Source: Candidatus Daviesbacteria bacterium GW2011_GWA1_41_61 (GTDB lineage: Bacteria > Patescibacteriota > Microgenomatia > Daviesbacterales > UBA10151). Taken from it: 64,000 nt of DNA. The notes under the pieces are model-generated. The model had not been told where the DNA came from and did no database searches. It saw only the letters and a program-made list of their open reading frames with translations. The stretch lies in NCBI GenBank assembly GCA_000997385.1, contig LCBT01000001.1, positions 49,707 through 113,706 of the forward strand, read 5' to 3'. Shown in pieces: positions 25,077 to 46,532 of this stretch. Both the position numbers and the translations under genes were made by a program. Every line of letters begins with the position of its first letter. The stretch's first letter is position 1.

Positions 25077-26243
25077 TTAGTTATTTCTTCTTAAAAAGGC
25101 GGGGATGTTAAAACGGGACTGCTCTTCATCATCCTCAGCTATAACTGGATCATCTGCCTGAGGAGATACCTGGGTATCATCTGAAGTACTGCTACTGCTG
25201 CTATAACTTCCTCCCAAACCTTTATTTAAATTAAGCTGAGGAATGGGGCTGGGAGCAGGACTACCCATAAACTCTCTAAATCTAGCCCTGGTACTATCAA
25301 AACCTGTAGCAATAACGGAAATCTTCAGCTGATCTATTTGATCCTCTTTAATAGTTGCCCCAAAGATAATATTGGCATCCGGGTCAGCAGCGGCAGAGAT
25401 AATCTTGGCAGCCTTATCCACCTCTTCCATGGTCAAATCATGACCACCAGTGATGTTGAAAAGAACTCCTTTGGCCCCTTCAATAGAAATTTCTAAAAGC
25501 GGTGAGGCAATGGCCATTCTGGCTGCCACCTCAGCCCTATTCTCTCCCCCTGCCTGCCCAATCCCCATTAAGGCTGAGCCGGCACTGGTCATAATGGTTC
25601 TAACATCAGCAAAATCAACGTTAATTAGGCCTGGAACAATAATTAAATCAGAGATTCCCTGTACTCCTTGACCTAAAACTGAATCCGCAGTCTTAAAAGC
25701 ATCCTGTAAGGTCATATTTTTATCAAAGACATCCAGCAGTCTTTGGTTAGGAATAACAATTAGGGCATCAACTTTGTCTTTGAGCTCTTCTAAGCCTTCT
25801 TCAGCGACTATCATTCTTCTAGTACCTTCAAAGTTGAATGGTTTAGTCACTACAGCCACCGTCAAAGCCCCAATCTTTTTAGAAATTGAAGCTGCAACGG
25901 AGATAGCTCCAGTTCCTGTGCCTCCTCCCATACCAGCAGTTAAAAAAACCATATCCGAATCTTTTAAAATATCCTCAATCTTCTGGGCTGATTCTTCAGC
26001 TGCCTGCTTACCAATGGAAGGATTACCTCCAGCTCCCAGACCCCGAGTTAAAGCTTCACCAATCTGAATTTTAGTAGGAGAGGGATGAGCTAAAAGGGCC
26101 TGGGCATCGGTATTAATAGCTATAAACTCAATACCTTGAATCTGCTGAAGGTTGATCATCGAAGATAAGGCATTACTGCCGCCACCGCCAATACCAATAA
26201 CTCTGATCTTAGCAAATTTCTGGACATCAGGCTTAATTAACAT
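25077..26243 (-). CDS. ftsZ: Cell division GTPase FtsZ
   Basis: Tubulin signature GGGTGTG ([13 protein letters not shown]) and N-terminal [10 protein letters not shown]. Confidence 0.95.
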
Positions 26244-26312
26244 AAACAGCTACTTTGGGCAGATTCTAACAATATTTTTTTATTTTGTCGAGTCCCCCTA
26301 CAATTACAAAAA

Positions 26313-27632
26313 TCAAGGCAGAAAAGATTTGACTAAATTTAATCCTCTTTGAAAAACATCCTTAAAAGGTAATCCCTTAGCCAACACCGGGATATTAAAC
26401 TGCGGTCCCGAAGCCATCTTAGACCCATATAAAATCAAACCTGCTGCTGTAGCAAAAGAAGGAGAGTCAATTTCATCAATTAATCCTACTAATCCTTCAT
26501 TTTTACCTACTCTGGCTGGGTATCCCAATACATATTTAGCTTGGTCTAAAAGCCCCACAGTTAAAGATCCTCCTCCACAGATAACTAAACCAGAAGGAGT
26601 TTGAGTACCGAAACCACTCTTTTTGATCTCCTTGCCTACCAGCTCAAATATTTCCCTCACTCTGGGTCTAATGATAGAGTCAACAACTGCTTTTTTGGAA
26701 ATTTTTTGTAAATCCTCACTGATACCAATACTTTTAACATCCAAAGGTTCTTCCTTTACGGATTTACTTGCTGAAACTCCTCTTTCCTCTTCTTTACCAT
26801 AGGCTTCTGGGAAGGCGGGAATTTTTGAAGTTCTTCCTAAGTAAACCTTGATTTTTTCAGCTGATTCTAAAGAAACTCGCAGCCCGACTGCTAAATCGGA
26901 GGTAATATGACGTGCACCCACGGGAATAACTGAGGAATGAGCAATCGCCCCATCAACATACATCACTACATCAGTCGTTTCTCCCCCGATATCCACTAAA
27001 ATAGCTCCTAGCTCCTTTTCTGTCTCAGTTAAGACAGCATAGGAGGAAGCAATACCGGAGAAAACTAACTCCTCCACATTCACCCCGACCAGTCCCATAC
27101 ATTTGACTAAATTTTTCATCGATGTGGTTGACCCGGTAATAATATGCGTATCTGTTTCTAGTCTTACCCCGGTCATGCCGATAGGATCCCTAATACCTTC
27201 TTGTCCATCCACAGTAAAAGTACGGGGAATTACATGAAGAATCTCTTTGGAAGAAGGTAACGGTATAGCTCTGGCAGCATCATTAACTCTTAAAACATCA
27301 TTTTCAGCAATCTCCCCTTCTGGTTTGGCTACTGCTACCACAGCATGGGAATTAGTACTTTCAATATGAGGTCCTCCAATAGAAACATAAACTGAGGAGA
27401 TGGAATAACCTGCCATCCTCTCTGATGCCTCAATACTCTCGGTGATAGCAGCGACAGCATCTTCAATATCAACAATCTGGGCTTTTCTGACTCCCCGGGA
27501 ATTCACAGCAGAAACCCCAATTAAATTAATCTTCCCATCCTCACCTAAAGAGGCAATAAGAGTAGCTATTTTCGAAGAACCAACATCAACGGCACAGATA
27601 ACTTTGTCTTTCGGCATATTTAACTTAACCAA
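26313..27632 (-). CDS. ftsA: Cell division protein FtsA
   Basis: Actin-fold ATPase motifs ICAVDVGSSKIA and DIGGETTDV. Positioned immediately upstream of ftsZ. Confidence 0.9.
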   Translation of the reverse strand: MVKLNMPKDKVICAVDVGSSKIATLIASLGEDGKINLIGVSAVNSRGVRKAQIVDIEDAVAAITESIEASERMAGYSISSVYVSIGGPHIESTNSHAVVAVAKPEGEIAENDVLRVNDAARAIPLPSSKEILHVIPRTFTVDGQEGIRDPIGMTGVRLETDTHIITGSTTSMKNLVKCMGLVGVNVEELVFSGIASSYAVLTETEKELGAILVDIGGETTDVVMYVDGAIAHSSVIPVGARHITSDLAVGLRVSLESAEKIKVYLGRTSKIPAFPEAYGKEEERGVSASKSVKEEPLDVKSIGISEDLQKISKKAVVDSIIRPRVREIFELVGKEIKKSGFGTQTPSGLVICGGGSLTVGLLDQAKYVLGYPARVGKNEGLVGLIDEIDSPSFATAAGLILYGSKMASGPQFNIPVLAKGLPFKDVFQRGLNLVKSFLP

Positions 27633-27738
27633 CTTGGCTGTAACAGACCTCTCCTACTAAATTAATTTTAAATCTTGTCTTTTGAGAAAGTCAAAAGATA
27701 GATCACCGCCTACTTACCTCATTAGCTTATCCCCAAAT

Positions 27739-28542
27739 TCAATCATTACTTTTGCTGGAAGAATATACAACTACAGGTTTATCAAAACGAAGATCAACAG
27801 TTTCCATTTCTTTCTCGTCTATTTTAGCTTTTTGTAAGATTAGTTGTAAAGAGCCCAGTTGCCGGAAAATATCTCCTGACAAAGAAAAAACTAATTTAGG
27901 CCTGGAGTACACCAGTAAAAAGTCTCCTGACTTTTTGAATTTGAAGAGAGAGCTGTCCTGGGCTTGAATCTCCAGTTTACCCAAATTTAAAATAACTTGC
28001 TCTAACTTAGTTAATAGGTCGCCTTCTATTTTTTGACCTAATTTAAGTTCATCTCCCAAGTAATATAAAATTGGTAACTGAAACTCCTGACCTTGAGCGA
28101 AAACATACCCCTCACTATCGGCAATATATAATTTCTTTACATCCTCAGGCAACGACCAGTCCAGTAAAGCCGTTGACGAGGAGGGAGAAGCGGTTAAATC
28201 CTCATCTAAGGCGGCTGTAGGGATAGGGGCAATTTTTATCAAAGGAACTCTTCCTTCGGCAATGATCTTTATTCCTTTGATAAATTTTCTTTCCCAGCGG
28301 AGGCTTTTGACACAAGGATAAAGTGAAACAGTTTTTTGAAAGATAGCTTTTTCATTAATATAGAAAAAATAGTTATGTTGGAGATTAATTTCTGATTTTA
28401 CCCTAGCCGTATCCAGACAAGCGGCATTTTTTGCTTCCCACTCGATTGAATCTGTTTTTAATAGATCAGTTTTAAAAATAGCCAAAGTTATCAAAACAAC
28501 CAGAAAAAACAGCAAGATAACGGTTTTTTTGCCTCTTATCAT
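27739..28542 (-). CDS. ftsQ: Cell division protein FtsQ/DivIB-like
   Basis: Single N-terminal TM helix plus a periplasmic POTRA-like domain. Canonical position between murG and ftsA. Confidence 0.55.
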   Translation of the reverse strand: MIRGKKTVILLFFLVVLITLAIFKTDLLKTDSIEWEAKNAACLDTARVKSEINLQHNYFFYINEKAIFQKTVSLYPCVKSLRWERKFIKGIKIIAEGRVPLIKIAPIPTAALDEDLTASPSSSTALLDWSLPEDVKKLYIADSEGYVFAQGQEFQLPILYYLGDELKLGQKIEGDLLTKLEQVILNLGKLEIQAQDSSLFKFKKSGDFLLVYSRPKLVFSLSGDIFRQLGSLQLILQKAKIDEKEMETVDLRFDKPVVVYSSSKSND

Positions 28543-29705
28543 CTTAAGTGGGACTCTCTGTCGCCTAAAAGTAAGGTCTCTAAAGCCAGTCTTTTAGCGG
28601 CATCCGCAATAGCTATTGGGTGAGCATTTTGAGCTTGTTTTTTTAACTGGGGTAAATTTTTTAACATCTTAGCAACAGTTTGATATAGTTTTTCAGCTGT
28701 TAAATCCACTTGCCACAAAACTTGAGCTAGTCCCAGTTTTCCAAAGTAGCAGGCGTTAGTTGTTTGTTCATCTTTATAAAGATAGGGTATTGGTATAACT
28801 AAAGTAGGTATAGAAAAATAAGCCAGTTCATAAAGAATATTGATACCACCCCGGGAAATTACCAAATCCACTTTCTTTAAAAGTTCAGCCAAATCTTCAA
28901 CTTCCAGCCATTTTTTTACTAAATATCTCTGGGGATGAGATAAAGATTTTTGTTTACTAGTCATTTTATCAAAATCGTTAAACTTAGAATCTCCAGTCTG
29001 GTGAACAATACAAGCTACTTTAGTCAAATCTTCCAAAATCTGGCGGATAGCTTCATTTATCAGATGGGAGCCCTGATTCCCCCCGGTAATATAAATTAGG
29101 GGTTTCTTTTCTTTTTGGGAGATTTTAACAATTTGGGTTATATCTGGACTCAAGGCAGTAACTTTATCTCTGCTGCGGTTTTCATAGGATTCTAGGATTG
29201 CCTTCCTCATGGGATTACCGGTAAAAACCATCCGCCGGTCTTTTCTTATCTGATCACCTTTAAAAGAAATGGCTACTTTGTTGGCAAAGAAAGCACTTAT
29301 TTCATTGGCGAGTCCCGAAACTAAAGTCTGTTCATGGATAATAATTGGAATAGATAAAAACCAGGCAGATATTACCACCGGCACTCCGACATAACCTCCG
29401 AAAGATAGCACCACATCCGGTTTTTCTTTTAAAAGCACATAAAAAGCCTGAATAAAACCAAAGGGAATTTTTAGCAGTGATGGTATGGTATGGACAGTAA
29501 AAACTCTCTGCAGTCTTCCGGTAGTCAAAGAGATAAATTTAACTCCTAAATTAGATAAAACCTGGGATTCCATGGAGGGAGTTTGATCCCCTTCCCGGGT
29601 GTAGCTTCTGCCCAGATAAACAATTTGCGTATGGGGATACTTTCGCAGCTGCTCAATCACTGCTTGGGCGGGGGTAAAATGTGAACCAGTAACAACAATT
29701 TTCAT
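28539..29705 (-). CDS. murG: UDP-GlcNAc:lipid I N-acetylglucosaminyltransferase MurG
   Basis: GT28 motifs MKIVVTGSHFTPAQAV, GGYVGVPV and ITGGNQGSHLINE. Confidence 0.85.
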   Translation of the reverse strand: MKIVVTGSHFTPAQAVIEQLRKYPHTQIVYLGRSYTREGDQTPSMESQVLSNLGVKFISLTTGRLQRVFTVHTIPSLLKIPFGFIQAFYVLLKEKPDVVLSFGGYVGVPVVISAWFLSIPIIIHEQTLVSGLANEISAFFANKVAISFKGDQIRKDRRMVFTGNPMRKAILESYENRSRDKVTALSPDITQIVKISQKEKKPLIYITGGNQGSHLINEAIRQILEDLTKVACIVHQTGDSKFNDFDKMTSKQKSLSHPQRYLVKKWLEVEDLAELLKKVDLVISRGGINILYELAYFSIPTLVIPIPYLYKDEQTTNACYFGKLGLAQVLWQVDLTAEKLYQTVAKMLKNLPQLKKQAQNAHPIAIADAAKRLALETLLLGDRESHLR

Positions 29706-30847
29706 CTTAAGTTTTGCTTTGAGATATTAAGTAATATACCTACTGCCACCAAATTTGCAAGTAGCGCTGATCCGCCATAAGATATAAAAGGCAGCGGAAC
29801 TCCGGTTAAGGGCATCAAAGAGACCATCGCTGCCAAATTAATAACCGCTTGAACTCCTAACCAGGTAGTCAGCCCGACGGCCAACAGTTTCCCATAGCTG
29901 TCTACAGCCGTTTGAGCTATTTTAAAACCTCTTAAAATCAAAAAACCAATAATAAAGATTAGTACCAGGCTTCCCAAAAAACCAAACTCTTCACCGATAA
30001 CTGAAAAAATAGAGTCGGTGGTCACCTCCGGAATGTAAGCAAATTTTTGCCTGGACTGCCCTACTCCCAACCCCAACAATCCTCCTGATCCTAAAGCTAT
30101 CAGGACTTGAGAAATATGATAAGAAAAGCCTTGAGGGTCAGCAAAAGGGTCTAAAAAGGCTAAAACTCTTTTGATACGATAAGGAGCAATTAAAATGAAA
30201 CCCATAGCTGAAACTAAACTGATTAGCGATAGACCAATAAAGTGAGCTAAAGGAGCTTCAGCAACGAAATAAACTGAAAAAGCAATCATGCTAAAGATTA
30301 TGGCTGAACCTAAGTCTTTTTGGAAAATCCCCAAAATGATCCCCACCAAACCTAAGATTACAAAAAAGGGGAAAGACTTACTGCTTTTACAAAAAATAGC
30401 TGATAAGAAGATAATGGCAGACAACTTAATGATCTCTGCCGGCTGAACATTGAAACCGGGAAACTTCAACCACCGATGAGCTCCTCCAGCAGAAATTCCC
30501 AACCCGGGAATAAAAACCAACAGCAGCAGCAAAACCGAAAAGATAAAAAACGGCAGGGCAAATTTTTGCAGGCGGTGATAATCAAAAAAACTGAAAAAAG
30601 CTAAAGCTCCTAGACCCATCAACAACCAAATAACTTGTTGTTTAATAAAATAATACTTATCTCCAAAATCTCTATAAGCTTCAAATTGGGAAGCGTCATA
30701 AACCATGAGCAGCCCAAAAAGGGATAAAAAAATTACGCTGCCTAAAAGGACCCAGTCAATTTTATGTTGCTGGGTAAAAACTCGGGGGGATTGATAAATG
30801 GACTTTTTCTCCTCTTTAGAAAAAGCCGGTACTTTAAGCCTTCTCAT
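29702..30847 (-). CDS. ftsW: SEDS-family lipid II flippase/polymerase FtsW
   Basis: SEDS motif IPEVTTDSIFSVIGEEFGFLGS. Located between mraY and murG. Confidence 0.8.
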   Translation of the reverse strand: MRRLKVPAFSKEEKKSIYQSPRVFTQQHKIDWVLLGSVIFLSLFGLLMVYDASQFEAYRDFGDKYYFIKQQVIWLLMGLGALAFFSFFDYHRLQKFALPFFIFSVLLLLLVFIPGLGISAGGAHRWLKFPGFNVQPAEIIKLSAIIFLSAIFCKSSKSFPFFVILGLVGIILGIFQKDLGSAIIFSMIAFSVYFVAEAPLAHFIGLSLISLVSAMGFILIAPYRIKRVLAFLDPFADPQGFSYHISQVLIALGSGGLLGLGVGQSRQKFAYIPEVTTDSIFSVIGEEFGFLGSLVLIFIIGFLILRGFKIAQTAVDSYGKLLAVGLTTWLGVQAVINLAAMVSLMPLTGVPLPFISYGGSALLANLVAVGILLNISKQNLR

Positions 30848-30904: not shown

Positions 30905-31915
30905 TTACTGAGAAATCAGAGCTAGCCAAAGACCAAAGATGGCCAGAACTGCTCCGGCCAGCCAAAATCTGACCACAATCTTGGGTTCTTCCCAACCGAT
31001 ATATTTAAAATACATATGGATCGGAGCCACTGGCAGAAGCTTTCTTTTTAAAAACTTTTTGGAAAAGATTTGCAGTAAAGAGGAAAAAATAATCACCACA
31101 TAAACTCCCCCAATAACAGCTAACCCAAAAATTTTACCGGTTAAAAGCCCGATCACGGCTAAAGTTGCTCCAAACCCAAAAGCCCCAGCATCCCCCAGGT
31201 AAACTCTGGCGGGATAGATGTTAAAGTAAAGATAAGCAATTAAGACCCCAATCCATACACCGGTAAAGATAGCCAAATTTTGGTTTAAAACTGAACTGGC
31301 CAAAACCAAAAAGGCAAATAAACAAATAGTCAATAGGCCTGTAGAAAGCCCGTCAAGTCCGTCGGAGATGTTGTAAGCATTAGCAAAGGAAACAATGGCA
31401 AAAACAGCCAAAGGGATATACCACCAACCTAAAACGATGTTGCCAATGACAGGGACAAAGATATTGTTCAACCCCACCACAAAATAAAGTAACAGCGCTA
31501 CTAGTACTGCAAAGAGCAACTGCAAAAGAAACAAATATCTGCCCCTAATCCCGGAATATTTACCAGAAAAGGAGATAAAAATCTTTCTAATATCATCTAA
31601 CAAACCTATAGAACCAAAGGTTAAAATAGTAAAAACTAAAACATAAATGTCTTCACTGGGACCCTGCCTGGTAACAAAAGCTGCCAGTAAACTAAGTACT
31701 ACCACGATAGGTATAAGCAAAATTCCCCCGCCAATAGGGGTATCAATATCCTTGCCAGCAAGCAGCTGATTATGAATTGGAGTATTAACATCATGGGCTA
31801 AAATGGCTGATTTTTTATCTCTTCTCTTTAAATAAAAAAGTAAATCTATAAAAGGAACTAACAAAAAACTGGTCACAAAGAAAGAGATGATAATTAATCC
31901 TAAAAGTTCAATCAT
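30905..31915 (-). CDS. mraY: Phospho-N-acetylmuramoyl-pentapeptide transferase MraY
   Basis: NAYNISDGLDGLSTG motif, 10 TM helices. Confidence 0.9.
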   Translation of the reverse strand: MIELLGLIIISFFVTSFLLVPFIDLLFYLKRRDKKSAILAHDVNTPIHNQLLAGKDIDTPIGGGILLIPIVVVLSLLAAFVTRQGPSEDIYVLVFTILTFGSIGLLDDIRKIFISFSGKYSGIRGRYLFLLQLLFAVLVALLLYFVVGLNNIFVPVIGNIVLGWWYIPLAVFAIVSFANAYNISDGLDGLSTGLLTICLFAFLVLASSVLNQNLAIFTGVWIGVLIAYLYFNIYPARVYLGDAGAFGFGATLAVIGLLTGKIFGLAVIGGVYVVIIFSSLLQIFSKKFLKRKLLPVAPIHMYFKYIGWEEPKIVVRFWLAGAVLAIFGLWLALISQ

Positions 31916-33189
31916 TTGGATTTACTAATCCTCGCCACCACTTCATCAAGTTTAACAGCTCGGGAGCCTTTTATCAAAATTAAGTCACCTTTGCTGGCAG
32001 TTCTTAAAATTCTGGCCACAATTTGGGAATTGGATAAATTTACTTCAATCTTTTCTGGTAAATACCCTAATTTGATTAACTCATCCCCAATAAATCTGAC
32101 ATCTCCTCCTCCTAAAAAGACATAATCTATTTTGTCCTTATAGATCTTCCGGGCTATCTCCCGGTGCAACTGCTCTGAGTAAACACCCAACTCCCTCATT
32201 TCCCCCAAAACAGCAATTCTCCTTCTCGCTGAAAGTTCATTTAAGACATTCAAAGCTTCTTCCAAAGCTACCGGAGAAGAGTTATAAGTATCATCTAAAA
32301 CATAACAACCATTCAGACCTTCTAAAAGTTGTAGCCTATGAGGTGCAGAAGCTACCTTCTCCAACCCCTTTTTAATATTAATCAAATTCATTCCCAAACT
32401 GACTCCCAAAGCGGCAGCAGCTAAGGCGGAATAAACAAAATGCTTCCCCAAAAGATTTAGGAAAATTTCAACCCTCTCTACTCCATAATTTAGTTCAAAC
32501 CTGGTTAAGCCATTCTCCAGGCGGATATTACTGGCCCAAAAATTACAGCTTTGAGGGTCAGTGCCAAAAAAGATCACTTTTGCTTCTGTATCTTTTGCTA
32601 ATTTGCGGACATTTAAATCGTCCCAATTTAAGATAGCAAAACCGTCTTTAGGAAGTTGTCTGATAAGTTTGCCTTTCTCTTCTAAAATCTGATTGATATC
32701 ACCTAAAAACTGGCTATGGGCAAAAGAAATCCTGGTGACAACTGCAGTGGCCGGTTTTACCAGTGAAAGGTAAAAGTTCATCTCTCCAGGATATTCTATT
32801 CCCATCTCCAAAATTGCTTTTTGAGTATTTGGTCTCATCCTTAGGATAGTAGCCGGGATATTAAAGATAGGGTCAAAATTTTCCCGGGTAGCAACAACCT
32901 TAAACTTCTCGGCTAACACTGACAAACAGGTCTCTTTGGTAGTAGTTTTCCCTACTGAACCGGTAATACCGATAAAGGAGCTTCTGGGATATAACTTGGC
33001 CAGATTTCTAGCCAGAAAAAAGCGGGCCAAATGGGCCGGTTTTTTATAAGCTTTAAGATTATTCCAAACAGGATGCTGGTAAATTTCCATAACTTTTATA
33101 TTACTTCTTCCCTTAGCTGGCGGATAACTTAATATTATACTCCTATTTTTCCTGAGCTTTAAGTTTAAAAACTGCCGAAATAATAACAT
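31912..33189 (-). CDS. murF: UDP-MurNAc-tripeptide--D-Ala-D-Ala ligase MurF
   Basis: Mur ligase P-loop IGITGSVGKTTTKE and a C-terminal Mur ligase domain. Confidence 0.85.
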   Translation of the reverse strand: MLLFRQFLNLKLRKNRSIILSYPPAKGRSNIKVMEIYQHPVWNNLKAYKKPAHLARFFLARNLAKLYPRSSFIGITGSVGKTTTKETCLSVLAEKFKVVATRENFDPIFNIPATILRMRPNTQKAILEMGIEYPGEMNFYLSLVKPATAVVTRISFAHSQFLGDINQILEEKGKLIRQLPKDGFAILNWDDLNVRKLAKDTEAKVIFFGTDPQSCNFWASNIRLENGLTRFELNYGVERVEIFLNLLGKHFVYSALAAAALGVSLGMNLINIKKGLEKVASAPHRLQLLEGLNGCYVLDDTYNSSPVALEEALNVLNELSARRRIAVLGEMRELGVYSEQLHREIARKIYKDKIDYVFLGGGDVRFIGDELIKLGYLPEKIEVNLSNSQIVARILRTASKGDLILIKGSRAVKLDEVVARISKSK

Positions 33190-35720: not shown

Positions 35721-35927
35721 ATCTTTGGTAGCACCTTTTAAGGCATGAAATTCTACGCTGTCAAATCCAGCTTCTTTGGCCCATCGTTGAAAATGGTCAA
35801 CCTTCCAACTTAAGGGGATATCTGGTCTCGTCCCTGTTAAAACTGCAGTACAAGGAAACCTGACGTCTAGCTGTCTTTACATTCGGTGTATCTTACCATA
35901 ATTGTCCCAATATCACTATGAGATAGA

Positions 35928-37731: not shown

Positions 37732-38052
37732 TTAATATGCTGAAGCTAAATTAAGAGGTTTAAGATATTGCCAGCTTTTGACAGCCGTAAAACCTAAAGA
37801 GACGGCCTTGGTTTCAATTGAGGCCAGAGAAGACTGCTGGGCGATCTGATTCTCCAAGACCTGATTTTCCAGATCTAAAGCCATTTTAGCACTTTTGATG
37901 TCTTGGATTTTATCCCCATAAGTTGAAAGTCTGTTGACAGCCCAAATTTCGAGAAACAAAACAGCTAAAAGTATCACTGCTCCTAAACGGATAAATTTAA
38001 CAACTCTTTTTCTGGGTCTTCTTTCCTCTTCTTGTTTTAAGTGTTTCATCAA
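37732..38052 (-). CDS. ftsL: FtsL-like cell division protein
   Basis: Small bitopic protein with a basic N-terminus, a TM helix LGAVILLAVLFLEIWAV and a coiled-coil ectodomain. Sits in the canonical slot upstream of ftsI. Confidence 0.5.
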   Translation of the reverse strand: MMKHLKQEEERRPRKRVVKFIRLGAVILLAVLFLEIWAVNRLSTYGDKIQDIKSAKMALDLENQVLENQIAQQSSLASIETKAVSLGFTAVKSWQYLKPLNLASAY

Positions 38053-38060
38053 TTAATTTC

Positions 38061-38456
38061 TCAAATCATTAACTCGCTGATAAGCTTTTGCCACTTTAGG
38101 GGATCCCAAATCTCAAAATGGTCCCCGGCTCCGACAATCACTACTTCACCTTTAAGCTGAGCATAATCCAAAAGCAACTTAGAGATTATAAACCTTCCCT
38201 GATCATCTAAAACCACACTTTCAGCAGCTGAGAATAAGTACCTTCTTAAATTCCTTGCCTTCTCCTCAGTGGCTGTTATCTCAAGCTGCTTTTCAGCTTC
38301 ATTTTTCCATTTCTCAATAGAGAATCCCCAGATGCACCCCTCAAACCCTCGGCTCAAAATAAGCTCTTTCCCACCTGACAGCTCAAATCTGAACTTTTTG
38401 GGCAAGATAATCCGGCCTTGTCCTGTAAACTTGGTATGATACTCGCCCAAAAACAC
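38061..38456 (-). CDS. mraZ: Transcriptional regulator MraZ
   Basis: VFLGEYHTKFTGQGRIILPKKFRFEL matches the MraZ N-terminus. A GTG start at 38454-38456 is preferred: it has an AAGGA SD 8 nt upstream and matches the MFxGEY consensus. The ORF track extends it to 38489. Confidence 0.75.
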   Translation of the reverse strand: MFLGEYHTKFTGQGRIILPKKFRFELSGGKELILSRGFEGCIWGFSIEKWKNEAEKQLEITATEEKARNLRRYLFSAAESVVLDDQGRFIISKLLLDYAQLKGEVVIVGAGDHFEIWDPLKWQKLISELMI

Positions 38457-38554
38457 CGCTGGTGTCCTTTCTGGGCAGCCCTGTACCACTTACTAAGTTC
38501 GGGTACAGGTTAAAATATCTTGTTAAAAACATAGAGGGTGTATCGACTGGTACA

Positions 38555-38626
38555 TCCCCATATTTCACCATCTCTAACCATAATGAACCATTAACCTACA
38601 CCCTGTCAAGTCCCCTTTTCACCATC
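38555..38626. promoter_or_regulatory. mraZ upstream region: two direct repeats GATGGTGAAA(W2-3)GGGGA (minus-strand sense, at 38555-38572 and 38611-38626) flanking a TTGACA hexamer (38604-38609)
   Basis: Repeats and hexamer read from the sequence. MraZ proteins are known to bind direct repeats in their own promoter. Confidence 0.35.
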
Positions 38627-38676: not shown

Positions 38677-39537
38677 CTACTTTAAAGGAGCCAGCACACT
38701 AAAAATACCGCCGCTTTCTGACTGGGCAAACAGACTGCTGCCTTCAATCTTGGTTTCATACTCCACCCATTGGTTGCCGGTTTCATCAAAACGGGCAATT
38801 TTAAGCTCTGAGGAGGGTGTTTGGACCAGCTCGATAGTTACCATACCCTCAGGCAGTGATTTGGATTGAGGTGTATTTAAAGCATAAACTTTCCCTAAAA
38901 CAGCCTTTCCTGAAGGCAATTTAGGAGCCCCGGTTAAATCATTAATAATGGTGAACTTTACCAAAGACAGTTGGACTGATTCAGTAGCTAGGTCATAAGC
39001 AAAATGGGCATCACCAGAAAAAAGTTTCCCTAACTGAAGATCAGGTTTCTGCAAATGCCACTGGGTAGTCATCCTAAAAGCCTTGTTGCCTTTTTTAATC
39101 CTCAAGATTAAGGTTCCGTTTTCCACTCCCTTATCATAAACACAGGTTCCCCCCGTAGAACAGGTGCCGAACAAGATCTCCTGTTCATATTCACTCCTGT
39201 TTTTAGGCAGTTTTATCCAGGTATCCAAAGATCCAGCCCCTCTGTCCACCCCTGTTTCATCAGCATAAGCTATCTGATAAGAGAACTCCTCAAAAGAAGC
39301 CACCCTTTTAATAACTAAATTTAAGGCATTTCCATCCCTTCTGGGAAAAAGCAAAGCATAAGGCCCCTCGGGATCAAAAGTTAAATCAACTTCTTCTAAA
39401 GGCAAACTAGTACTACCTCTCACAAAAAATTTCTGGTAAGAAAACAAACCTGCAACAACCACTAAAATTATAAAAATGATCAAAAGAAGAAGGGGTTTAT
39501 TTTGTATGACACTTTTAAGAAATTGTCCCATTAACAA
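38677..39537 (-). CDS. Hypothetical membrane-anchored extracytoplasmic protein (286 aa)
   Basis: N-terminal TM helix LLLLIIFIILVVVAGLF plus a Cys-containing beta-rich domain. No family assigned. Confidence 0.5.
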   Translation of the reverse strand: MLMGQFLKSVIQNKPLLLLIIFIILVVVAGLFSYQKFFVRGSTSLPLEEVDLTFDPEGPYALLFPRRDGNALNLVIKRVASFEEFSYQIAYADETGVDRGAGSLDTWIKLPKNRSEYEQEILFGTCSTGGTCVYDKGVENGTLILRIKKGNKAFRMTTQWHLQKPDLQLGKLFSGDAHFAYDLATESVQLSLVKFTIINDLTGAPKLPSGKAVLGKVYALNTPQSKSLPEGMVTIELVQTPSSELKIARFDETGNQWVEYETKIEGSSLFAQSESGGIFSVLAPLK

Positions 39538-39799
39538 CCAGCATCCTCCTGACCTCTTCAGTCTCAGACGGAAAATCTATAAAAGAAGAACAGGGAATAT
39601 AAGGCATAGATCCATAACCCTTCAACCAATCATTAATCCTACCAATGCGAACTGCACCCATGGCTCCTGGAAAATCTTCTTCACTTTGGACCAGACGTCT
39701 GAAAGTAGCATCATCAGTAACTTCGATAGAACCTCCGGGGAGGTCTTTTCTAAAAATACCTGTAATATCAGTCGGTCTGATGGTTATTGATTCGGTCAT
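39515..39799 (-). CDS. Small hypothetical ORF (94 aa), uncertain
   Basis: Open frame overlapping both neighbours (23 and 32 nt). No SD and no recognisable motif. Confidence 0.25.
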   Translation of the reverse strand: MTESITIRPTDITGIFRKDLPGGSIEVTDDATFRRLVQSEEDFPGAMGAVRIGRINDWLKGYGSMPYIPCSSFIDFPSETEEVRRMLVVNGTIS

Positions 39800-41102
39800 T
39801 AATAAAATTTCTTAGCTGATTAATTTCTGCTCTTTCCTGTTTAGCTGTATCCCTATCCCTAACGGTAACTGTTTCATCTTCCAAGGTCTGGAAATCAACA
39901 GTAATACAAAAAGGTGTGCCGATCTCATCTTGGGAGGCATACCTTTTACCAATATTACCCCGCTCATCCCACGCTACCATGAAATCCTTTTTCAGGTCAA
40001 GATGGATCTTTTTAGCTTTCTCCACTAGCTCTGGCTTATTAGCCAAAAGTGGAAAAACAGCAGCCTTATAGGGGGCAAGCTGAGGATGAAGTTTCAAAAT
40101 CACCCGACCTTTATTTTCAGAGTAAGCATCAATTAAGAAAAACAAAGCTGATCTATCTACTCCCATTGACGACTCAATATCCCAAGGAATATATTCTTCC
40201 CCAGTTTCCGGGTCTTTATATTTCATCTCTTTAGAGCTATATTGCTGATGTCGGCTCAAATCCCAGTCCCCTCTATGGTGCACCCCCATAAACTCTGCCC
40301 ATCCCCAAGGAGCTTGATATTCAATGTCTGTAGCAGCCCGGGCGTAATGAGCCCTTTCATCCGGAGCATGATCCTTAAACTTTAGTTTATCTTTACTGAT
40401 TCCTAGTTTTATATACCAATCCATCCAATATTTCTTCCAGTATTCAAAGGTTTTCAAGCTATCTTTTTCATCAGGTTTAACAAAATACTGCACTTCCATC
40501 TGTTCAAACTCTCTTGATCTAAAGGTAAAGTTTCCCGGGGTAATCTCATTGCGGAAAGCCTTACCGATCTGGGCAATACCAAAGGGAATCCTTATTCTGG
40601 TAGAGTCCACCACATTTTTAAAATTTACATGAACGCCTTGAGTAATCTCTCCCCGTAAAAATATTTCCTGTTGTTTTCCCTCAATCACCCCTAGGTAAGC
40701 CTTAACTAAGAGGTTAAACTTCTGAGGCTCTGTCCAATCACTTTTGCCGGGGTGGTGCTTTTTCTCATGGGCTTTAATTTCATCCTCGTGATCTGCCCGT
40801 AACCTTTCATGGTCAATACGGCATTCTACTAACGGATCAGTGAAGGCCTCCACATGACCAGAAGCCTCCCAAACCCTAGGATTCATCATAATAGCAGCAT
40901 CTATTCCGACAATATCTTCCCTAATCTGCACCATGCTTTTCCACCACATATTTTTAAGGTTACGCTTGAGCTCCACTCCCACCGGACCATAATCCCATAT
41001 TCCAGCCAAACCACCATAGATCTCCGAACCAGGGTAAATAAACCCGCGGCGTTTAGCCAAAGCCACTATTTTATCCATTAAGTTATTATTTTGATCTACC
41101 AT
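39768..41102 (-). CDS. glyQS: Glycine--tRNA ligase, alpha2 (eukaryote/archaeal-like) form
   Basis: N-terminus RRGFIYPGSEIYGGLAGIWDYGPVG is diagnostic of class II GlyRS alpha2. 444 aa. Confidence 0.9.
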   Translation of the reverse strand: MVDQNNNLMDKIVALAKRRGFIYPGSEIYGGLAGIWDYGPVGVELKRNLKNMWWKSMVQIREDIVGIDAAIMMNPRVWEASGHVEAFTDPLVECRIDHERLRADHEDEIKAHEKKHHPGKSDWTEPQKFNLLVKAYLGVIEGKQQEIFLRGEITQGVHVNFKNVVDSTRIRIPFGIAQIGKAFRNEITPGNFTFRSREFEQMEVQYFVKPDEKDSLKTFEYWKKYWMDWYIKLGISKDKLKFKDHAPDERAHYARAATDIEYQAPWGWAEFMGVHHRGDWDLSRHQQYSSKEMKYKDPETGEEYIPWDIESSMGVDRSALFFLIDAYSENKGRVILKLHPQLAPYKAAVFPLLANKPELVEKAKKIHLDLKKDFMVAWDERGNIGKRYASQDEIGTPFCITVDFQTLEDETVTVRDRDTAKQERAEINQLRNFINDRINNHQTD

Positions 41103-41149
41103 ATTATTTCAGATTATATTTGATCTATCTTGATTTTGCACCCTACTTT

Positions 41150-41812
41150 TTAGCTTTTTGTTCTAAGCTTCTGAATTATCTTAACACTTCTTAAAGGAGA
41201 TTCTAAGACTTTTTCTAAATAAGATCTTAAAATTCTTTCCAGCTCCTCTGATTGAACTTGGGTTACCTCTATTTGGGCAATCTCCTCCCAACTCCCTTTC
41301 TGGAGTTTTTCCAGTATTTCCCTAACCCCCCTTACTTCCCCTACCTGATCTAAAGACCAAAAACCTAAAACTGTCAAAAGTTTGACCTCAAAAGCTCTGA
41401 TAAAAATCTGCCGGGGATTATTTTCCAAGAGATTTAAAACAATTACCAGTAAATTATAAGCTTGGGGATTAGGTTGCTCCTCGGGCAATAATCTATCAGC
41501 TAGTTCAGCTATATGAGAACTATAAGTAGAGATCATTAAATCATTTTTAATCTTAGAAAAAGTCTTAAGGGACTCTGCTTCTGTTAACAGATCCATTCCT
41601 TTCCCCTGAAAAACCTGAATTTTTACTTTATTTAAAAGCTCTACATTACCGCCACGTCTGGAGGTAATTCTTCTGACCCCTTTGGCCACCACCTTAATCT
41701 TTCCTTTAAAAGGGGTAACAATGGTTAAAATCCTATCCGCCTCCCCAAAGTTAGACCTTTTAACAATAATCCCTTCTGTAGTAAACACTGGCATAGTAAA
41801 GGAATTATACAC
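41150..41812 (-). CDS. recO: DNA repair protein RecO
   Basis: N-terminal OB-fold EGIIVKRSNFGEADRILTIVTPFKGKIKVVAKGVRRITSRRGG matches the RecO family. Confidence 0.7.
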   Translation of the reverse strand: MYNSFTMPVFTTEGIIVKRSNFGEADRILTIVTPFKGKIKVVAKGVRRITSRRGGNVELLNKVKIQVFQGKGMDLLTEAESLKTFSKIKNDLMISTYSSHIAELADRLLPEEQPNPQAYNLLVIVLNLLENNPRQIFIRAFEVKLLTVLGFWSLDQVGEVRGVREILEKLQKGSWEEIAQIEVTQVQSEELERILRSYLEKVLESPLRSVKIIQKLRTKS

Positions 41813-41842
41813 TTACTTAAGTCACTTAAGGTACTTAAAAAG

Positions 41843-43750
41843 TTAAAAAGTTAAATCGAGTTGCTTGTCTGAGGTCAAATCAAATTCTGCTTTTTTATTA
41901 CCATTAATTTTAACAATATACTTGTGGTTTTTGGCTCCCGGTTGTTTTTGGATAAGCAGGGGATAATTTTTCTCCGTCACTTTTACTGGAGACGTATACT
42001 CTAAAGATAAAGTCAGGGAGTTTTGGGGACGGACCACCACAAAGGCCTCAAAATAAATTTTATTCAGATCATTGTCTAAAGCTGTAGTAACCTTCTCAGC
42101 AGAACCTTTTGAATCAGTTAAAACGCTTCCTTTGGGAACAAAAATTCTGACATAATCCCTTAAAATCCCATTTAACCAAGTATTGTAAGGTTGAGGATTT
42201 TTATACTCAATAGTTATTTTATGTTTTGCTGAACCATCTTTAGTTGTAGTAATTTCTAAAGTCACTTTCTCATCAACATAAAGATTTGATTTACCTCCAG
42301 CGAAGTTGGAATCATTAAGGTGTAAGTAATCCCCCTCAGGATCTCTCTTAATCTCTCCTGTCCAATTAAGCTTGCTAAAAGACTGCTGGATCTTCCCATT
42401 ATGCATATAAGCCATCAGATGTTTATCATTGGCTAACTTAATAGTAGTATTGAGTAAAGTAGGCAACTGGTCTGGTCCTAAAGTTAAAAGTTTGGCCATC
42501 AGTTGCTGCATTAAAGCTCCCAAAATAGCTTTTCTATCAGATTCTCCCTTGGCAGTTATCTCAGCGTAATGTTCCAACTCGTAAATTACATTGGGGCAAT
42601 TACACCGCTTGTCCTTCTCAGCACTATACGTAGTCCCTAAAACATCAATCGGGCCGGTCACCGCAATCAGCTCTTCTACTACCTGAGTATCAATAGTAAA
42701 GATACCATCAAAGGAAATTCCATCTCCCAGCATCTCATACATCCTTTCAAATTGCTGGAGTGAGGTAGGCAGATCAGGTGATAAATTAGAATCTCTCATT
42801 GACCAAGCGCTTCGGGGCTTGCCATCTGCTTCAGGTAAATATTTAACGATTGGGGCAGGAGGAGAGAGAGGGCAAATTTTATTTAAACAAACCTTCAAAA
42901 GCCTCTCATCAAGGCGGTAAATATCATCAGAGGCAGTGGTAGATAACTTTCCATTGTCTAACCTTAAGAAAGCATAGGCAGTAATAAAACCCCCGGTAGC
43001 CCGAAGCTCCTTATCATTTTGAAATAAAAGCAGGTAGTTTTTAGCCCCTTTTTGTCCTAAAAGTTCTGGTAAAACTTCAATCAAACCCTTATTTTCAGAA
43101 ACCGCAATATCAGCTCCAACGATAAAATTTTTAGCCTCCTCTATTCTGCCTCTTAACTTCTTTGAACCAAAATTTTCCGGGTATTTACCGGTATCGACAC
43201 TTTCTATCTCTCTGCGGGCTTTTTTCAAAAATGGCTCAACTTTATCTAAACTTGGTAAAGTTTTATCCAGGATCTTGACTGCTTGAGCTACCCTGTCCTG
43301 CCCAGGTGTTCCTTGTCCGGTTAACCCGATCTCATTTTTATAAGGCTCTAAAGAATCAGTGAGGATCTTGACCGCTTCCAGTTCGTACTCGAAAGCCGTA
43401 ACAAAGTGTTTGGCGTCACTGTAAAAACCCCCAACAAAAGGCAAGGCCCTCATCCAAAAAAAGAAATTTAAAGCTCCATTTAAACTGCTTACTGATTTTT
43501 GGGTATCAACCACTCCCTGCCTTACTAAATCAAGATTTTCCTGCTTTGCTCCCAGTATTATCTGGCGGCTGCTTTGCATTACCTGCTTGGTGGACTGGTA
43601 GATACTTCGGGCAGGCAAATAAATCAAGACAAAAAGAATGATAAAAATAATGACAAGTCTGATAAGCCACCCTTTCCCCTTTCTCTCTGGGGAAGAGGAA
43701 TTTTTCTTTCCCACACCATCAATTTTTTTATTTAAATTAATAAAAGGCAT
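41843..43750 (-). CDS. Large bitopic extracytoplasmic protein, possibly DUF4012-like (635 aa)
   Basis: N-terminal TM helix and a large soluble domain containing NYLLLFQNDKELRATGGFITAYAF. Adjacent to a polyprenyl-phosphate sugar transferase, as DUF4012 genes typically are. The family assignment is from memory and not verified. Confidence 0.4.
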   Translation of the reverse strand: MPFINLNKKIDGVGKKNSSSPERKGKGWLIRLVIIFIILFVLIYLPARSIYQSTKQVMQSSRQIILGAKQENLDLVRQGVVDTQKSVSSLNGALNFFFWMRALPFVGGFYSDAKHFVTAFEYELEAVKILTDSLEPYKNEIGLTGQGTPGQDRVAQAVKILDKTLPSLDKVEPFLKKARREIESVDTGKYPENFGSKKLRGRIEEAKNFIVGADIAVSENKGLIEVLPELLGQKGAKNYLLLFQNDKELRATGGFITAYAFLRLDNGKLSTTASDDIYRLDERLLKVCLNKICPLSPPAPIVKYLPEADGKPRSAWSMRDSNLSPDLPTSLQQFERMYEMLGDGISFDGIFTIDTQVVEELIAVTGPIDVLGTTYSAEKDKRCNCPNVIYELEHYAEITAKGESDRKAILGALMQQLMAKLLTLGPDQLPTLLNTTIKLANDKHLMAYMHNGKIQQSFSKLNWTGEIKRDPEGDYLHLNDSNFAGGKSNLYVDEKVTLEITTTKDGSAKHKITIEYKNPQPYNTWLNGILRDYVRIFVPKGSVLTDSKGSAEKVTTALDNDLNKIYFEAFVVVRPQNSLTLSLEYTSPVKVTEKNYPLLIQKQPGAKNHKYIVKINGNKKAEFDLTSDKQLDLTF

Positions 43751-43754
43751 AAAT

Positions 43755-44525
43755 TTAGACAGCTCCTTTTCCCAGTAATACTGCCGGGATAGTATTTAAA
43801 ATAAGCCATAGATCATACAAAATTGACCTTCGCTGGACATATTTGGCATCCAATTCCACTCTTTTATCAAAGTTGATCTCTGATCTGCCTGAAACCTGCC
43901 ATAACCCGGTCAGTCCTGGTTTCGCTGACAAAATGATTTTCACAAACCTCTTTGTAGAAGGATACTTTTCCTGTTGTTCCTCAAGTTCAAAAGGGTTGTA
44001 AGCCCGAGGGCCAACTAAACTCATCTCCCCTTTTAAAACATTAAAAAATTGCGGCAGTTCATCAATAGAGGTCTTTCTGATAAACTTACCTGCCCTAGTA
44101 ATCCGCGGATCTTCATCTCTGTCTAATTTATAGCTGTTGTGTTGATATTTTTCCAAAAGCTCTTTAAACTGGGGATCCTTATGCAACAACTCATGGGCTC
44201 CCACAATCATCGACCTGAACTTATACATTTTAAACAACTTACCATCTTTCCCCACTCTCTTAGGGATGTCAGCCAGTATCGGACCTTTAGAATCCAGTTT
44301 AATCAGGAAAGCCATGATCAACATTAAAGGAGAAAGAATAATAATACCAACCAGCGATCCGACTATATCAATCAACCTTTTAAATGTTTCATAACTGAAA
44401 AGACCAACTGAAGGGGTTACTCCTGCCAAAACCTTACTATCTAAGACCAAGGTTTGATCTTGGCTACGCGGGGGAAAAGCTGGATCATTTTCGGAGGAAA
44501 GAACTTGTTCGTTTACTACAGTCAT
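43755..44525 (-). CDS. Polyprenyl-phosphate sugar-1-phosphate transferase (monotopic PGT, WbaP/PglC-like)
   Basis: Bacterial sugar transferase motifs KMYKFRSM, DELPQFFNVLKGEMSLVGPRA and GLWQVSGRS. Confidence 0.8.
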   Translation of the reverse strand: MTVVNEQVLSSENDPAFPPRSQDQTLVLDSKVLAGVTPSVGLFSYETFKRLIDIVGSLVGIIILSPLMLIMAFLIKLDSKGPILADIPKRVGKDGKLFKMYKFRSMIVGAHELLHKDPQFKELLEKYQHNSYKLDRDEDPRITRAGKFIRKTSIDELPQFFNVLKGEMSLVGPRAYNPFELEEQQEKYPSTKRFVKIILSAKPGLTGLWQVSGRSEINFDKRVELDAKYVQRRSILYDLWLILNTIPAVLLGKGAV

Positions 44526-45583
44526 AAGTCGTTGATAACACTTTGAAATCTTTTAATGAAATTTGTCTTGGAAAAATAGGCAGCGTTATTAAAGCACATT
44601 TTCTGATTATAACCCCTTTTGTCCAGAGTCTCTAGCGCTTCAATTAAGCTTTCTACTGTCTGTTCACTAAAAAAATAGCCTGTTTCCCCCTCAATAACAG
44701 TTTCCAAGGATCCCCCTTGCCCATAAGCTATCACCGGTTTACCTAAAGCTTGAGCTTCTAAGGAAACCATCCCAAAATCTTCTTCCCCGGCTACCACTAA
44801 AGCTTTACATCCGGATAAAAGCAAAGTCAACAAATCTTCATCCACACTTCCTAAAAGCTCTACTGTTGGTCCTGCCATCAAAGCTAGATTATGATACTCC
44901 GGACCACTACCAACAATCTTCAAGGACACCTTTAACCTGTTGGCTGCCCCAACCACTAAGTCTACCCTTTTATATTTATTTAGTCTAGTAATCACCAACA
45001 AATATCCCCCATCAAATGTTTGGACACTAGCAAATCTTTCTAAATCCACAAAAGGATAAATTACTTTAGCTTCAGCTTGGTAAATCTTATAAATTCTCTG
45101 TTTAACATTTAGGGAATTGGCTAGCCAAAAATCAACCCTTTTGGATGCCAGGTGATCATAAAGTCTTAAAAAGCTGAGATAAGGAGAAAATATCCCCTCA
45201 ACCCTTTCTCCTGAGAAATTCCACAAAAATCTGGGAGGAGTAGGACAAAAACATACATGTTTTGTCCCGGGTTTGGTAATAATACACTTGGCAAAACGGG
45301 TGGAGTGGGAGATCACCAAATCAAACTTGGAAAAATCAAATTGTTCAAAAGCCAAGGGGTGAAGCGGTAATAAAGTCTTGTATAATTTTTTCCATCCCGG
45401 AATTTTTTGAATAAAAGAGGTGATAATTTTTTTAGAGTGAAAATTTTCTTTTAATAACTTATTATTATCATCATGGGCTAAAGTATAAATTGGAGCTTGG
45501 GGAAAGATCTCTGATAAAGTCACCAGTACCCTCTCAGCTCCCCCCCATTGCACCAGGTCATCATGAACAAGCGCTACCTTCAT
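44522..45583 (-). CDS. Glycosyltransferase family 4 (GT-B)
   Basis: N-terminal MKVALVHDDLVQWGGAERV and a C-terminal EEDFGMVSLEAQALGKPVIA GT4 signature. Confidence 0.7.
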   Translation of the reverse strand: MKVALVHDDLVQWGGAERVLVTLSEIFPQAPIYTLAHDDNNKLLKENFHSKKIITSFIQKIPGWKKLYKTLLPLHPLAFEQFDFSKFDLVISHSTRFAKCIITKPGTKHVCFCPTPPRFLWNFSGERVEGIFSPYLSFLRLYDHLASKRVDFWLANSLNVKQRIYKIYQAEAKVIYPFVDLERFASVQTFDGGYLLVITRLNKYKRVDLVVGAANRLKVSLKIVGSGPEYHNLALMAGPTVELLGSVDEDLLTLLLSGCKALVVAGEEDFGMVSLEAQALGKPVIAYGQGGSLETVIEGETGYFFSEQTVESLIEALETLDKRGYNQKMCFNNAAYFSKTNFIKRFQSVINDL

Positions 45584-45617
45584 TGTCCTAATTGTACCAA
45601 AAGTATAAAATACACCT

Positions 45618-46532
45618 ATGAATACCTATCACATTCCAGTGATGCTTAAGGAGACTCTTCAATTCCTTCAGGTTAAACCTAAAGCTTGGTATATCGATGC
45701 TAATTTAGGAGGCGGAGGTCATACAGAAGGGATTATTAAAGCAAGAAGTAAGGTTTTAGGGATAGATTTAGACCCGGAAGCTATTAGGGAAGTGGCTAAA
45801 AACCATCACCTGGAGGTGAAACTCATTAATGACCACCTTCAGGCTATCTCTGCTGATTTAATCCTTTATCAGTCAAACTTTGCCCACATGGGAGAAGTTG
45901 TTAAAAAACTGCAGTTAGATAAAATCTTAGGAGTACTTTTTGATTTAGGAGTCTCTTCTCATCAGTTGGAGAAACCACAAAGAGGGTTTAGTTTTAACCT
46001 TGAAGCTCCTTTAGACATGAGGATGGACCCACAGCATATGACAGTTACCGCTGCTGATCTAATCAACGCTTTACATGAAAATGAGCTTACCCAACTTATT
46101 CAAAAATATGGGGAAGAAAGATATGCTAAAAGAATCGCCAAGAAAATTGTTGAAGAAAGAAAAAAACAAAGAATAGCCACTACCAACCATCTTGCTCAAA
46201 TCATTACCTCTGTTAGACCCAAATCCAAAGCTGACAGAACTCATCCGGCTACCAGAACTTTTCAAGCGCTGAGGATTGCCGTCAATGACGAGCTCCATAG
46301 TTTAAAGGAAGCTTTACCTCAAGTCTTAGAAGTACTCAGTCCAGGAGGAAGATTGGTAGTGATTAGCTTTCATTCCCTAGAAGATCGGATTGTTAAAAAC
46401 TTTTTTAAAGATGAGAACAAAAAGGGTTCGATCAAAATTATTACTCAAAAACCTTTAATTCCTTCTGAAGAAGAAGTTAAAACTAACCCCCGTTCCAGAA
46501 GCGGTAAACTCCGTGTAGCTGAGAAACTCTAA
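45618..46532 (+). CDS. rsmH: 16S rRNA (cytosine1402-N4)-methyltransferase RsmH (MraW)
   Basis: N-terminus YHIPVMLKETLQFL...YIDANLGGGGHTEGI matches the RsmH consensus. It lies on the opposite strand and about 7 kb from mraZ/ftsL. Confidence 0.9.
   Translation: MNTYHIPVMLKETLQFLQVKPKAWYIDANLGGGGHTEGIIKARSKVLGIDLDPEAIREVAKNHHLEVKLINDHLQAISADLILYQSNFAHMGEVVKKLQLDKILGVLFDLGVSSHQLEKPQRGFSFNLEAPLDMRMDPQHMTVTAADLINALHENELTQLIQKYGEERYAKRIAKKIVEERKKQRIATTNHLAQIITSVRPKSKADRTHPATRTFQALRIAVNDELHSLKEALPQVLEVLSPGGRLVVISFHSLEDRIVKNFFKDENKKGSIKIITQKPLIPSEEEVKTNPRSRSGKLRVAEKL

Follow-up and report, generated by a model that had tools for sequence, protein, structure and literature searches.

The pair formed by mraZ and rsmH at the head of the dcw cluster (for division and the cell wall) ranks among the best-conserved gene adjacencies of bacteria. 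In the 64,000-nucleotide stretch of Candidatus Daviesbacteria bacterium GW2011_GWA1_41_61 analyzed here (contig LCBT01000001.1; the whole stretch is called the window below), this pair is broken. The rsmH gene lies 7.1 kb from the start of mraZ and on the opposite strand, and the mraZ stop is followed after 8 nt by the start of ftsL. The same order is found in two further species, and because relatives that group with the window species in trees of flanking genes have kept rsmH in the cluster, the displacement is a derived character of a Daviesbacteria subclade rather than the quirk of a single assembly or the rule throughout Daviesbacteria. The resident gene was probably rearranged locally and would now be autonomous, probably leaderless, and uncoupled from the mra promoter. 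Our literature searches found no description of such an rsmH rearrangement.

Displacement of rsmH in a Daviesbacteria subclade

Gene identities were taken from Pfam, NCBIfam, and PDB matches of nearly all non-nested window open reading frames (ORFs) of at least 90 aa, and called genes within 10 kb past each end of the window were also considered. For comparison, RsmH was searched for over one genome per GTDB species, and the window proteins were then mapped by tblastn on 80 fetched loci (numbered below with the prefix L). A preliminary description of this DNA had placed rsmH on the plus strand, with the mraZ–rsmH–ftsL linkage broken, with a convergent DegT gene whose stop codon is 1 nt away, and with glyQS, recO, and a trio of DUF4012, phosphoglycosyl transferase (PGT), and GT4 genes between it and mraZ. 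The matches agree with each of these points (Table 1). The last base of the rsmH stop (TAA) is 46532, and the stop of DegT, read as TTA on the plus strand, begins at 46534; the intervening block contains, in addition, a 286-aa ORF (unk286) and a 94-aa ORF. With the exception of rsmH, all credible genes between parB (19456) and the end of the window, and over at least 10 kb more, are on the minus strand.

About a dozen Microgenomates genomes, from Levybacteria, Gottesmanbacteria, and others, share an ancestral order, GT4b–GT4a–PGT–DUF4012–recO–glyS–(unk286)–mraZ–rsmH–(ftsL)–ftsI (L012, L015, L016, L020, L027, L030, L033, L034, L037, L045, L084, and partly L075; L012, L016, and L034 showed no GT4b, and in L075 the order is visible from DUF4012 onward only). 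The window, L007, and L010 have a derived order, in which the block from GT4a to mraZ is itself unchanged and rsmH stands on the opposite strand between GT4b and GT4a. The RsmH proteins of L007 and L010 are 63% and 59% identical to that of the window. As in the window, mraZ abuts ftsL in L007, with no rsmH between them and a gap of 81 nt; the L010 contig ends just past mraZ. Two further loci carry an rsmH of the displaced type at another site, between hrcA and lepA and opposite to both neighbors (L008, 9343–10323; L009, 2195–3175), where hrcA is divergent from rsmH and, in L009, lepA is convergent with it. The preliminary description had taken the genes between mraZ and rsmH to be inserted extras. 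That part does not stand, since the block is the ancestral upstream neighbor of mraZ and it is rsmH that has been moved or replaced; insertion fits only a 252-aa ORF between ftsI and murE and the DegT/FdtA genes beside rsmH, which are species-specific.

The polarity of the change rests on L037, which retains mraZ–rsmH–ftsL, and L021, which retains rsmH–ftsL and in which no mraZ was detected. A grouping of the window species and L007/L010 with L037/L021 as sister received 199 of 200 bootstraps for FtsI, 200 of 200 for DUF4012, and 171 of 200 for MraZ (the latter two with L037 only). Quartet parsimony agreed, with 17.1 sites for this grouping versus 6.9–7.9 in FtsI, 42 versus 5–7 in DUF4012, and 6 versus 1–2 in MraZ. 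The possibility raised in the preliminary description, that the order is simply the norm for the lineage, thus holds for the subclade of the window, L007, and L010 and fails in its sisters.

Gene order being a deterministic observation, chance plays no part in it; an error of assembly between 38.6 and 45.6 kb had been named as what might undo it. Exact copies of the window proteins are found in four NCBI metagenome-assembled genomes (MAGs) labeled Candidatus Daviesbacteria and in many ENA, Logan, and JGI assemblies from Rifle groundwater, on contigs of up to 630 kb. The exact RsmH sequence was present on 23 contigs read, and the joins from mraZ through GT4a, rsmH, and DegT are identical in at least six independent assemblies (ENA, Logan, NCBI, and JGI) made from different samples with different assemblers. 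In favor of a misjoin, one might point out that an NCBI contig (LBZY01000002.1) breaks off within DegT, right behind rsmH, and that the glycan locus in which rsmH sits varies between strains. But other assemblies span the point where that contig ends, the base composition is smooth across the region, and L007 and L010, two further species that stem from unrelated projects, have the derived order as well. We therefore regard a misjoin as excluded for practical purposes, its probability being negligible.

Several of the loci used here, among them L007, L010, L014, L015, L019, and L022, come from Third Party Annotation (TPA) MAGs entitled "uncultured Gammaproteobacteria/Pseudomonadales bacterium." Their dcw neighborhoods are typical of Microgenomates, and these and other such TPA MAGs are evidently mislabeled genomes of the candidate phyla radiation (CPR).

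Origin and expression of the displaced gene

Judged by its sequence, the relocated RsmH is intact and is a predicted 16S rRNA m4C1402 methyltransferase (TIGR00006/PF01795). The match to TIGR00006 is full-length (residues 2–303 of 304), the GGGGH motif is present, and of 76 columns with a conservation of 90% or more over 34 RsmH sequences, 75 are retained. The gene also appears to carry its own signals. A putative sigma-70-like promoter occupies the 34-nt spacer between the start of GT4a and rsmH, and because its −10 box stops 6 nt ahead of the ATG and no Shine–Dalgarno sequence is present before the gene, the mRNA is probably leaderless. A −10 box stands at the same distance from the ATG in L007 (TGaTAAAAT), L010 (TATAAT), and L008 (TAGAAT), that is, in four of the five displaced genes, and the canonical rsmH of L037, which abuts mraZ, has an AGGAG Shine–Dalgarno sequence. 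We infer that rsmH is now an autonomous monocistronic unit. At its other end, since no terminator fits between rsmH and DegT, the two convergent transcripts probably overlap.

MraZ of Escherichia coli represses the mra promoter. In the window, four tandem 10-bp units (ATGGTTcatt, ATGGTTagag, ATGGTGaaat, and ATGGGGatgt) lie over the −10 box of the predicted mra promoter, and relatives have TGGGA-N5-TGGGA repeats at the same place. These units look like MraZ boxes and are predicted binding sites, given the MraZ-binding repeats of Bacillus subtilis, GTGG[A/T]G with a 10-bp period (bioRxiv 10.1101/2022.02.09.479790). The mra promoter and the MraZ-controlled operon thus look intact, minus rsmH. In MraZ itself, the D of the first DXXXR motif is replaced by S or T and the R is kept. 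We considered a tie between this divergence and the move of rsmH and rejected it, as the replacement extends across the whole Daviesbacteria clade, including the canonical L037, and does not correlate with the position of the gene. Several Levybacteria MraZ proteins lack the R of the motif.

How might rsmH have come to its new site? In our preferred account, it would have been cleanly excised from between mraZ and ftsL in the ancestor of the subclade, as the gap of only 8 nt suggests, and re-established ~7 kb upstream, at the GT4a|GT4b junction, in the opposite orientation. Two nested inversions sharing block ends, the first of GT4a..rsmH and the second of GT4a..mraZ, could have produced this outcome, as could an inverted copy made at the GT4a|GT4b junction if the original gene was lost afterwards. 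The gene would then lie outside the MraZ-controlled mra promoter, which would still drive mraZ–ftsL–ftsI through ftsZ, and the regulatory uncoupling would be a consequence of the move. We consider such a local event probable, because the old and new sites are 7 kb apart, the new one falls exactly on the distal boundary of the conserved block, and the gene there is inverted.

Several observations nevertheless weigh against relocation of the resident gene and against an autonomous promoter. A tight clade unites the five displaced RsmH proteins (197 of 200 bootstraps), but it joins the RsmH of L037/L021 in only 4 of 200, and quartet support for RsmH is flat (5.2/5.0/6.0 sites). The RsmH of the window is 47% identical to that of L037 and 50% identical to Levybacteria RsmH, whereas for FtsI the corresponding values are 61% and 49%. 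Relative-rate distances to outgroups show the displaced RsmH to be only slightly accelerated. A repeat search from 37.6 to 47 kb returned only short matches at chance level, with no direct or inverted repeats or mobile-element remnants at the junctions. The region is AT-rich, and its count of promoter-like matches exceeds that of shuffled sequences only mildly (13 versus 8.1 ± 2.9). The trees, moreover, were made by neighbor joining and parsimony, not maximum likelihood, on 20–34 sequences with 200 bootstraps. The incongruence of RsmH would fit foreign replacement about as well as relocation.

Two other origins have to be set beside local relocation. The resident rsmH may have been lost and a horizontally acquired one, from other Microgenomates or CPR bacteria and with its own promoter, may have entered the glycan locus; in L008 and L009, a later insertion or second move would have brought it to the hrcA|lepA site. 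This would account for the contrast between the 4 of 200 bootstraps by which the displaced RsmH clade joins its sisters and the 171–200 of 200 for FtsI, DUF4012, and MraZ; for the sister signal that quartets lack for RsmH and show clearly for the flanking genes; for the near absence of acceleration relative to outgroups; and for the occupation of two different sites within the clade, one of them in a strain-variable glycan locus. However, for a random insertion into a genome of ~1 Mb, landing 7 kb away at the edge of the block would be a coincidence, and no donor is visible, the nearest outside RsmH proteins being ~50–53% identical and all from Microgenomates or other CPR bacteria. RsmH identities also plateau at 45–53% across very distant lineages, such that resolution is poor, and the canonical RsmH of L037/L021 itself looks slightly fast-evolving. 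Because of the coincidence at the block boundary and the poorly resolving RsmH trees, we rank foreign replacement below local relocation, as a serious but rather unlikely contender. An ancient duplication with differential loss, in which the window clade kept a copy in the glycan locus and L037/L021 kept the canonical copy, would explain both the incongruent RsmH tree and the nearby location of the displaced gene. Yet the paralogues would have had to persist for long, none of the 80 fetched loci has two rsmH matches, and CPR genomes are small and seldom retain housekeeping paralogues; we consider this origin quite improbable.

The displaced position of rsmH bears on the pairing of the two proteins. 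Eraso et al. are said to have found in 2014 that the lethality of MraZ overproduction in E. coli is relieved by co-expression of RsmH. The window likewise encodes both proteins, each above its NCBIfam equivalog threshold, and has kept a promoter with MraZ-box-like repeats. But in contrast to the E. coli pair, its genes cannot be co-transcribed, and a balance of co-expression would need another route. A clade in which both genes are intact yet split physically and transcriptionally amounts to a small natural experiment, and it suggests that co-transcription is dispensable, at least in these reduced CPR genomes. The displacement is also usable as a synapomorphy for a Daviesbacteria subclade. Taken alone, however, the rearrangement is a modest, lineage-specific variant of a known cluster and not a new kind of system. 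The more consequential leads on CPR peptidoglycan synthesis are a truncated MurB family and a MurE without domain 1, both encoded in the same cluster.

Mur genes and relation to known clusters

The short murB noted in the preliminary description is present, but it is not peculiar to this genome. Translation probably begins at the ATG at 33730, which yields a protein of 195 aa (sMurB) that matches only the flavin adenine dinucleotide (FAD)-binding family FAD_binding_4 (PF01565, E value 2e-9), scores 38 bits against TIGR00179, the model of MurB (UDP-N-acetylenolpyruvoylglucosamine reductase; cutoff 144.5), and aligns with residues 37–157 of a 322-residue MurB (PDB 3tx1). The C-terminal substrate-binding domain with the catalytic Ser and Glu (PF02873) is unmatched, and no coding space is left for it before murF. 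A structural model (predicted local distance difference test score, pLDDT, 90.9) resembles MurB structures with template modeling (TM) scores of 0.74–0.80 on the query and about 0.5 on the target, or about half of it. By these matches and the model, sMurB appears to fall outside the MurB family proper and to keep the FAD-binding PCMH module. Among the best 120 of 242 significant matches, taken as clusters, the homologues are 166–224 aa long (nearly all 193–216), match PF01565 only, are 42–70% identical, and are mostly labeled Daviesbacteria; their NCBI name is "FAD-binding protein." The short protein is also encoded in L037 (14221–14820) and L021 (3739–4320) and represents a conserved Daviesbacteria-wide family. 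It occupies the ancestral position of murB, where L033 has a full-length, 325-aa gene in the order murE–murC–murB–murA. L037 has the order murE–sMurB–murA–murF, and in the window murA is gone from that slot; some genomes with sMurB still have murA beside it.

MurE is likewise short. Its longest possible ORF is 404 aa, which aligns with residues 86–481 of the 498-residue Thermotoga maritima enzyme (PDB 4bub) and with positions 89–484 of NF001126; the N-terminal uridine diphosphate (UDP)-binding domain 1 is lacking. Orthologues, with L012, L015, L033, L034, and L037 among those sized, are 384–426 aa long and also without domain 1, and L045 has an ORF of 458 aa.

MurE and MurF are the only Mur ligases among the window ORFs. 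The absence of murC, murD, and ddl from the window, noted in the preliminary description, is confirmed by the ORF scans, and neither these genes nor murA or a full-length murB appeared in the window or in the genes called over the 10 kb on either side. For two of them this is no peculiarity: murD and ddl are absent from the dcw cluster at every Microgenomates locus examined, which makes their absence the norm for the lineage. As for murC, clusters of the Levybacteria type have it and those of the Daviesbacteria type lack it, and a query with a Levybacteria MurC gave an output dominated by MurC proteins of Levybacteria. A query with the L037 MurA recovered many Daviesbacteria MurA proteins (67–91% identity), none of them attributable to the genome of the window or its 630-kb contig. 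An AmgK/MurU-type salvage of N-acetylmuramic acid (MurNAc) was also considered and set aside, as the APH-family kinase at 1343–2338 gave no AmgK match.

These observations invite a broader account, in which the move of rsmH would be one symptom of a wider remodeling of wall genes in Daviesbacteria, the displaced gene being a leaderless cassette with its own promoter that was acquired horizontally and took the place of the operon copy. It would rest on the lineage-wide reduction of MurB, on the loss of the UDP-binding domain of MurE across Microgenomates, and on the lack, in this species, of murA, murC, murD, and ddl within 84 kb around the cluster. As a combined proposition we hold it to be unlikely. 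Were the mur genes truly missing genome-wide, peptidoglycan would have to be made from scavenged precursors or by an undescribed split or alternative set of enzymes.

The canonical dcw cluster has the order mraZ–rsmH–ftsL–ftsI–murE–murF–mraY–murD–ftsW–murG–murC–(murB)–ddl–ftsQ–ftsA–ftsZ. Like the E. coli and B. subtilis clusters, that of the window is a co-directional array that begins with mraZ and has a promoter with G-rich repeats of 10-bp period, and ftsL–ftsI, murE, murF, mraY, ftsW, and murG keep their canonical relative order (with a weak assignment for ftsL and with mraY and murG below their equivalog cutoffs), with ftsA and ftsZ clear at the 3′ end. It differs in the position of rsmH, which is inverted, 7 kb upstream, and no longer part of the operon; in the absence of murD, murC, and ddl from the cluster; in a murB cut to its FAD-binding module; in a MurE without domain 1; and in an unrelated gene inserted between ftsI and murE. 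The Microgenomates-type neighborhoods (L037 and the Levybacteria and Gottesmanbacteria loci) share the upstream block with the window, as well as the short MurE; the short MurB is shared by L037 and L021. Unlike in the window, rsmH stays in the cluster there, and L037 has murA between sMurB and murF; in Levybacteria-type clusters, again unlike in the window, murE is followed by murC, murA, and in most cases a full-length murB. The Mycoplasma cluster mraZ–rsmH–ftsA–ftsZ is a similarly strongly remodeled dcw cluster in a reduced genome (bioRxiv 10.1101/2022.02.09.479790). There, however, the mraZ–rsmH pair is kept and the wall genes are lost, whereas in the window the wall and division genes are kept and the pair is broken.

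Cluster map and neighboring genes

The minus-strand order from mraZ to ftsZ given in the preliminary description is reproduced by the Pfam, NCBIfam, and PDB matches (Table 1), with ftsL resting on a weak match and ftsQ on position and a UniRef label, since the ORF at the ftsQ position has no Pfam or NCBIfam match.

Table 1. Features of the dcw cluster, the displaced rsmH, and their surroundings in the window
Feature	Coordinates	Strand	Basis or remark
ftsZ	25077..26243	−	Tubulin (E 3e-47), FtsZ_C (E 1.5e-34)
ftsA	26313..27632	−	FtsA and SHS2_FTSA domains
ftsQ-like	27739..28542	−	267 aa; between murG and ftsA; position and UniRef label "POTRA domain-containing protein"
murG	28539..29705	−	Glyco_transf_28 N- and C-terminal domains; TIGR01133 202 bits, below cutoff 250
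ftsW	29702..30847	−	FTSW_RODA_SPOVE (E 2e-100)
mraY	30905..31915	−	Glycos_transf_4; TIGR00445 176 bits, slightly under cutoff 192
murF	31912..33189	−	TIGR01143 306 bits, cutoff 289
Short MurB-like FAD-binding protein (sMurB)	33143..33730 (longest ORF to 33796)	−	PF01565 only
murE without N-terminal domain 1	33735..34949	−	TIGR01085 393 bits, cutoff 257
252-aa ORF	34962..35720 (homologous codons in frame to ~35881)	−	No family match
ftsI	35928..37646	−	PBP_dimer and Transpeptidase domains
ftsL	37732..38052	−	Weak FtsL_Actino match (E 4.6e-5) and position; homologue of the ORF that separates rsmH from ftsI in L037
mraZ	38061..38489	−	TIGR00242 103 bits, cutoff 98
Predicted mra promoter	38552..38609	−	TTGACA-18-CATTAT, overlapped by four 10-bp repeats; upstream of mraZ
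unk286	38677..39537	−	Conserved 286-aa protein with one N-terminal hydrophobic helix; usual upstream neighbor of mraZ in Microgenomates
glyQS	39768..41102	−	Glycyl-tRNA synthetase (GlyRS) of alpha2 type; PDB 8u2q (E 3e-133)
recO	41150..41812	−	RecO_N and RecO_C domains
DUF4012 protein	41843..43750	−	PF13196 (E 2.5e-24)
PGT (Bac_transf)	43755..44525	−	PF02397 (E 4e-61)
GT4 glycosyltransferase GT4a	44522..45583	−	Domain match
Putative rsmH promoter	45583..45611	+	TTGTCC-17-TAAAAT; inside the GT4a-start-to-rsmH spacer
rsmH, displaced and inverted	45618..46532	+	PF01795 345 bits; TIGR00006 328 bits, cutoff 154
DegT aminotransferase and FdtA-like gene	46534..48058	−	Between rsmH and GT4b in the window species only
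GT4 glycosyltransferase GT4b	48051..49181	−	Ancestral direct neighbor of GT4a

The 252-aa ORF between ftsI and murE, called an orphan in the preliminary description, has no Pfam, NCBIfam, or PDB sequence match, and no homologue stands at this position in L007 or L037. It does belong to a small family of ~300-aa proteins with 29 representatives, for which fold comparison gave only weak, TIM-barrel-like matches. About 50 conserved N-terminal codons of this family continue in frame upstream of the ORF, at 35721–35881, where an ATG at ~35881–35879 is directly followed by TAA (ATG TAA AGA CAG). Such a sequence points to a nonsense mutation that arose recently at codon 2 or to initiation at the downstream GTG, and because of it the gene is predicted to be either N-terminally truncated or decaying. 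The idea that the family is a usual member of dcw clusters was rejected, as five metagenome loci show unrelated neighbors.

On its upstream side, the dcw cluster directly adjoins a very large surface-glycan locus, which covers 41843–64000 of the window and at least 10 kb beyond it (L094 and L095). The locus contains DUF4012, PGT, many GT4 and GT2, PMT_2, Wzy-like, DegT, FdtA, hexapeptide transferase, flippase, and methyltransferase genes, and its PMT/Wzy part varies between assemblies at the strain level. Elsewhere in the window, the region 11000–17000 has a GC content of 0.29–0.34 (versus ~0.39 elsewhere) and a positive GC skew and carries plus-strand glycosyltransferase, hexapeptide-transferase, and NUDIX genes; it may be a second glycan island, acquired horizontally. 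Finally, a Bro-N domain protein (7244–8119) and a small ORF with a weak match to a Phi29 scaffolding protein (4162–4491) may be phage-derived remnants.

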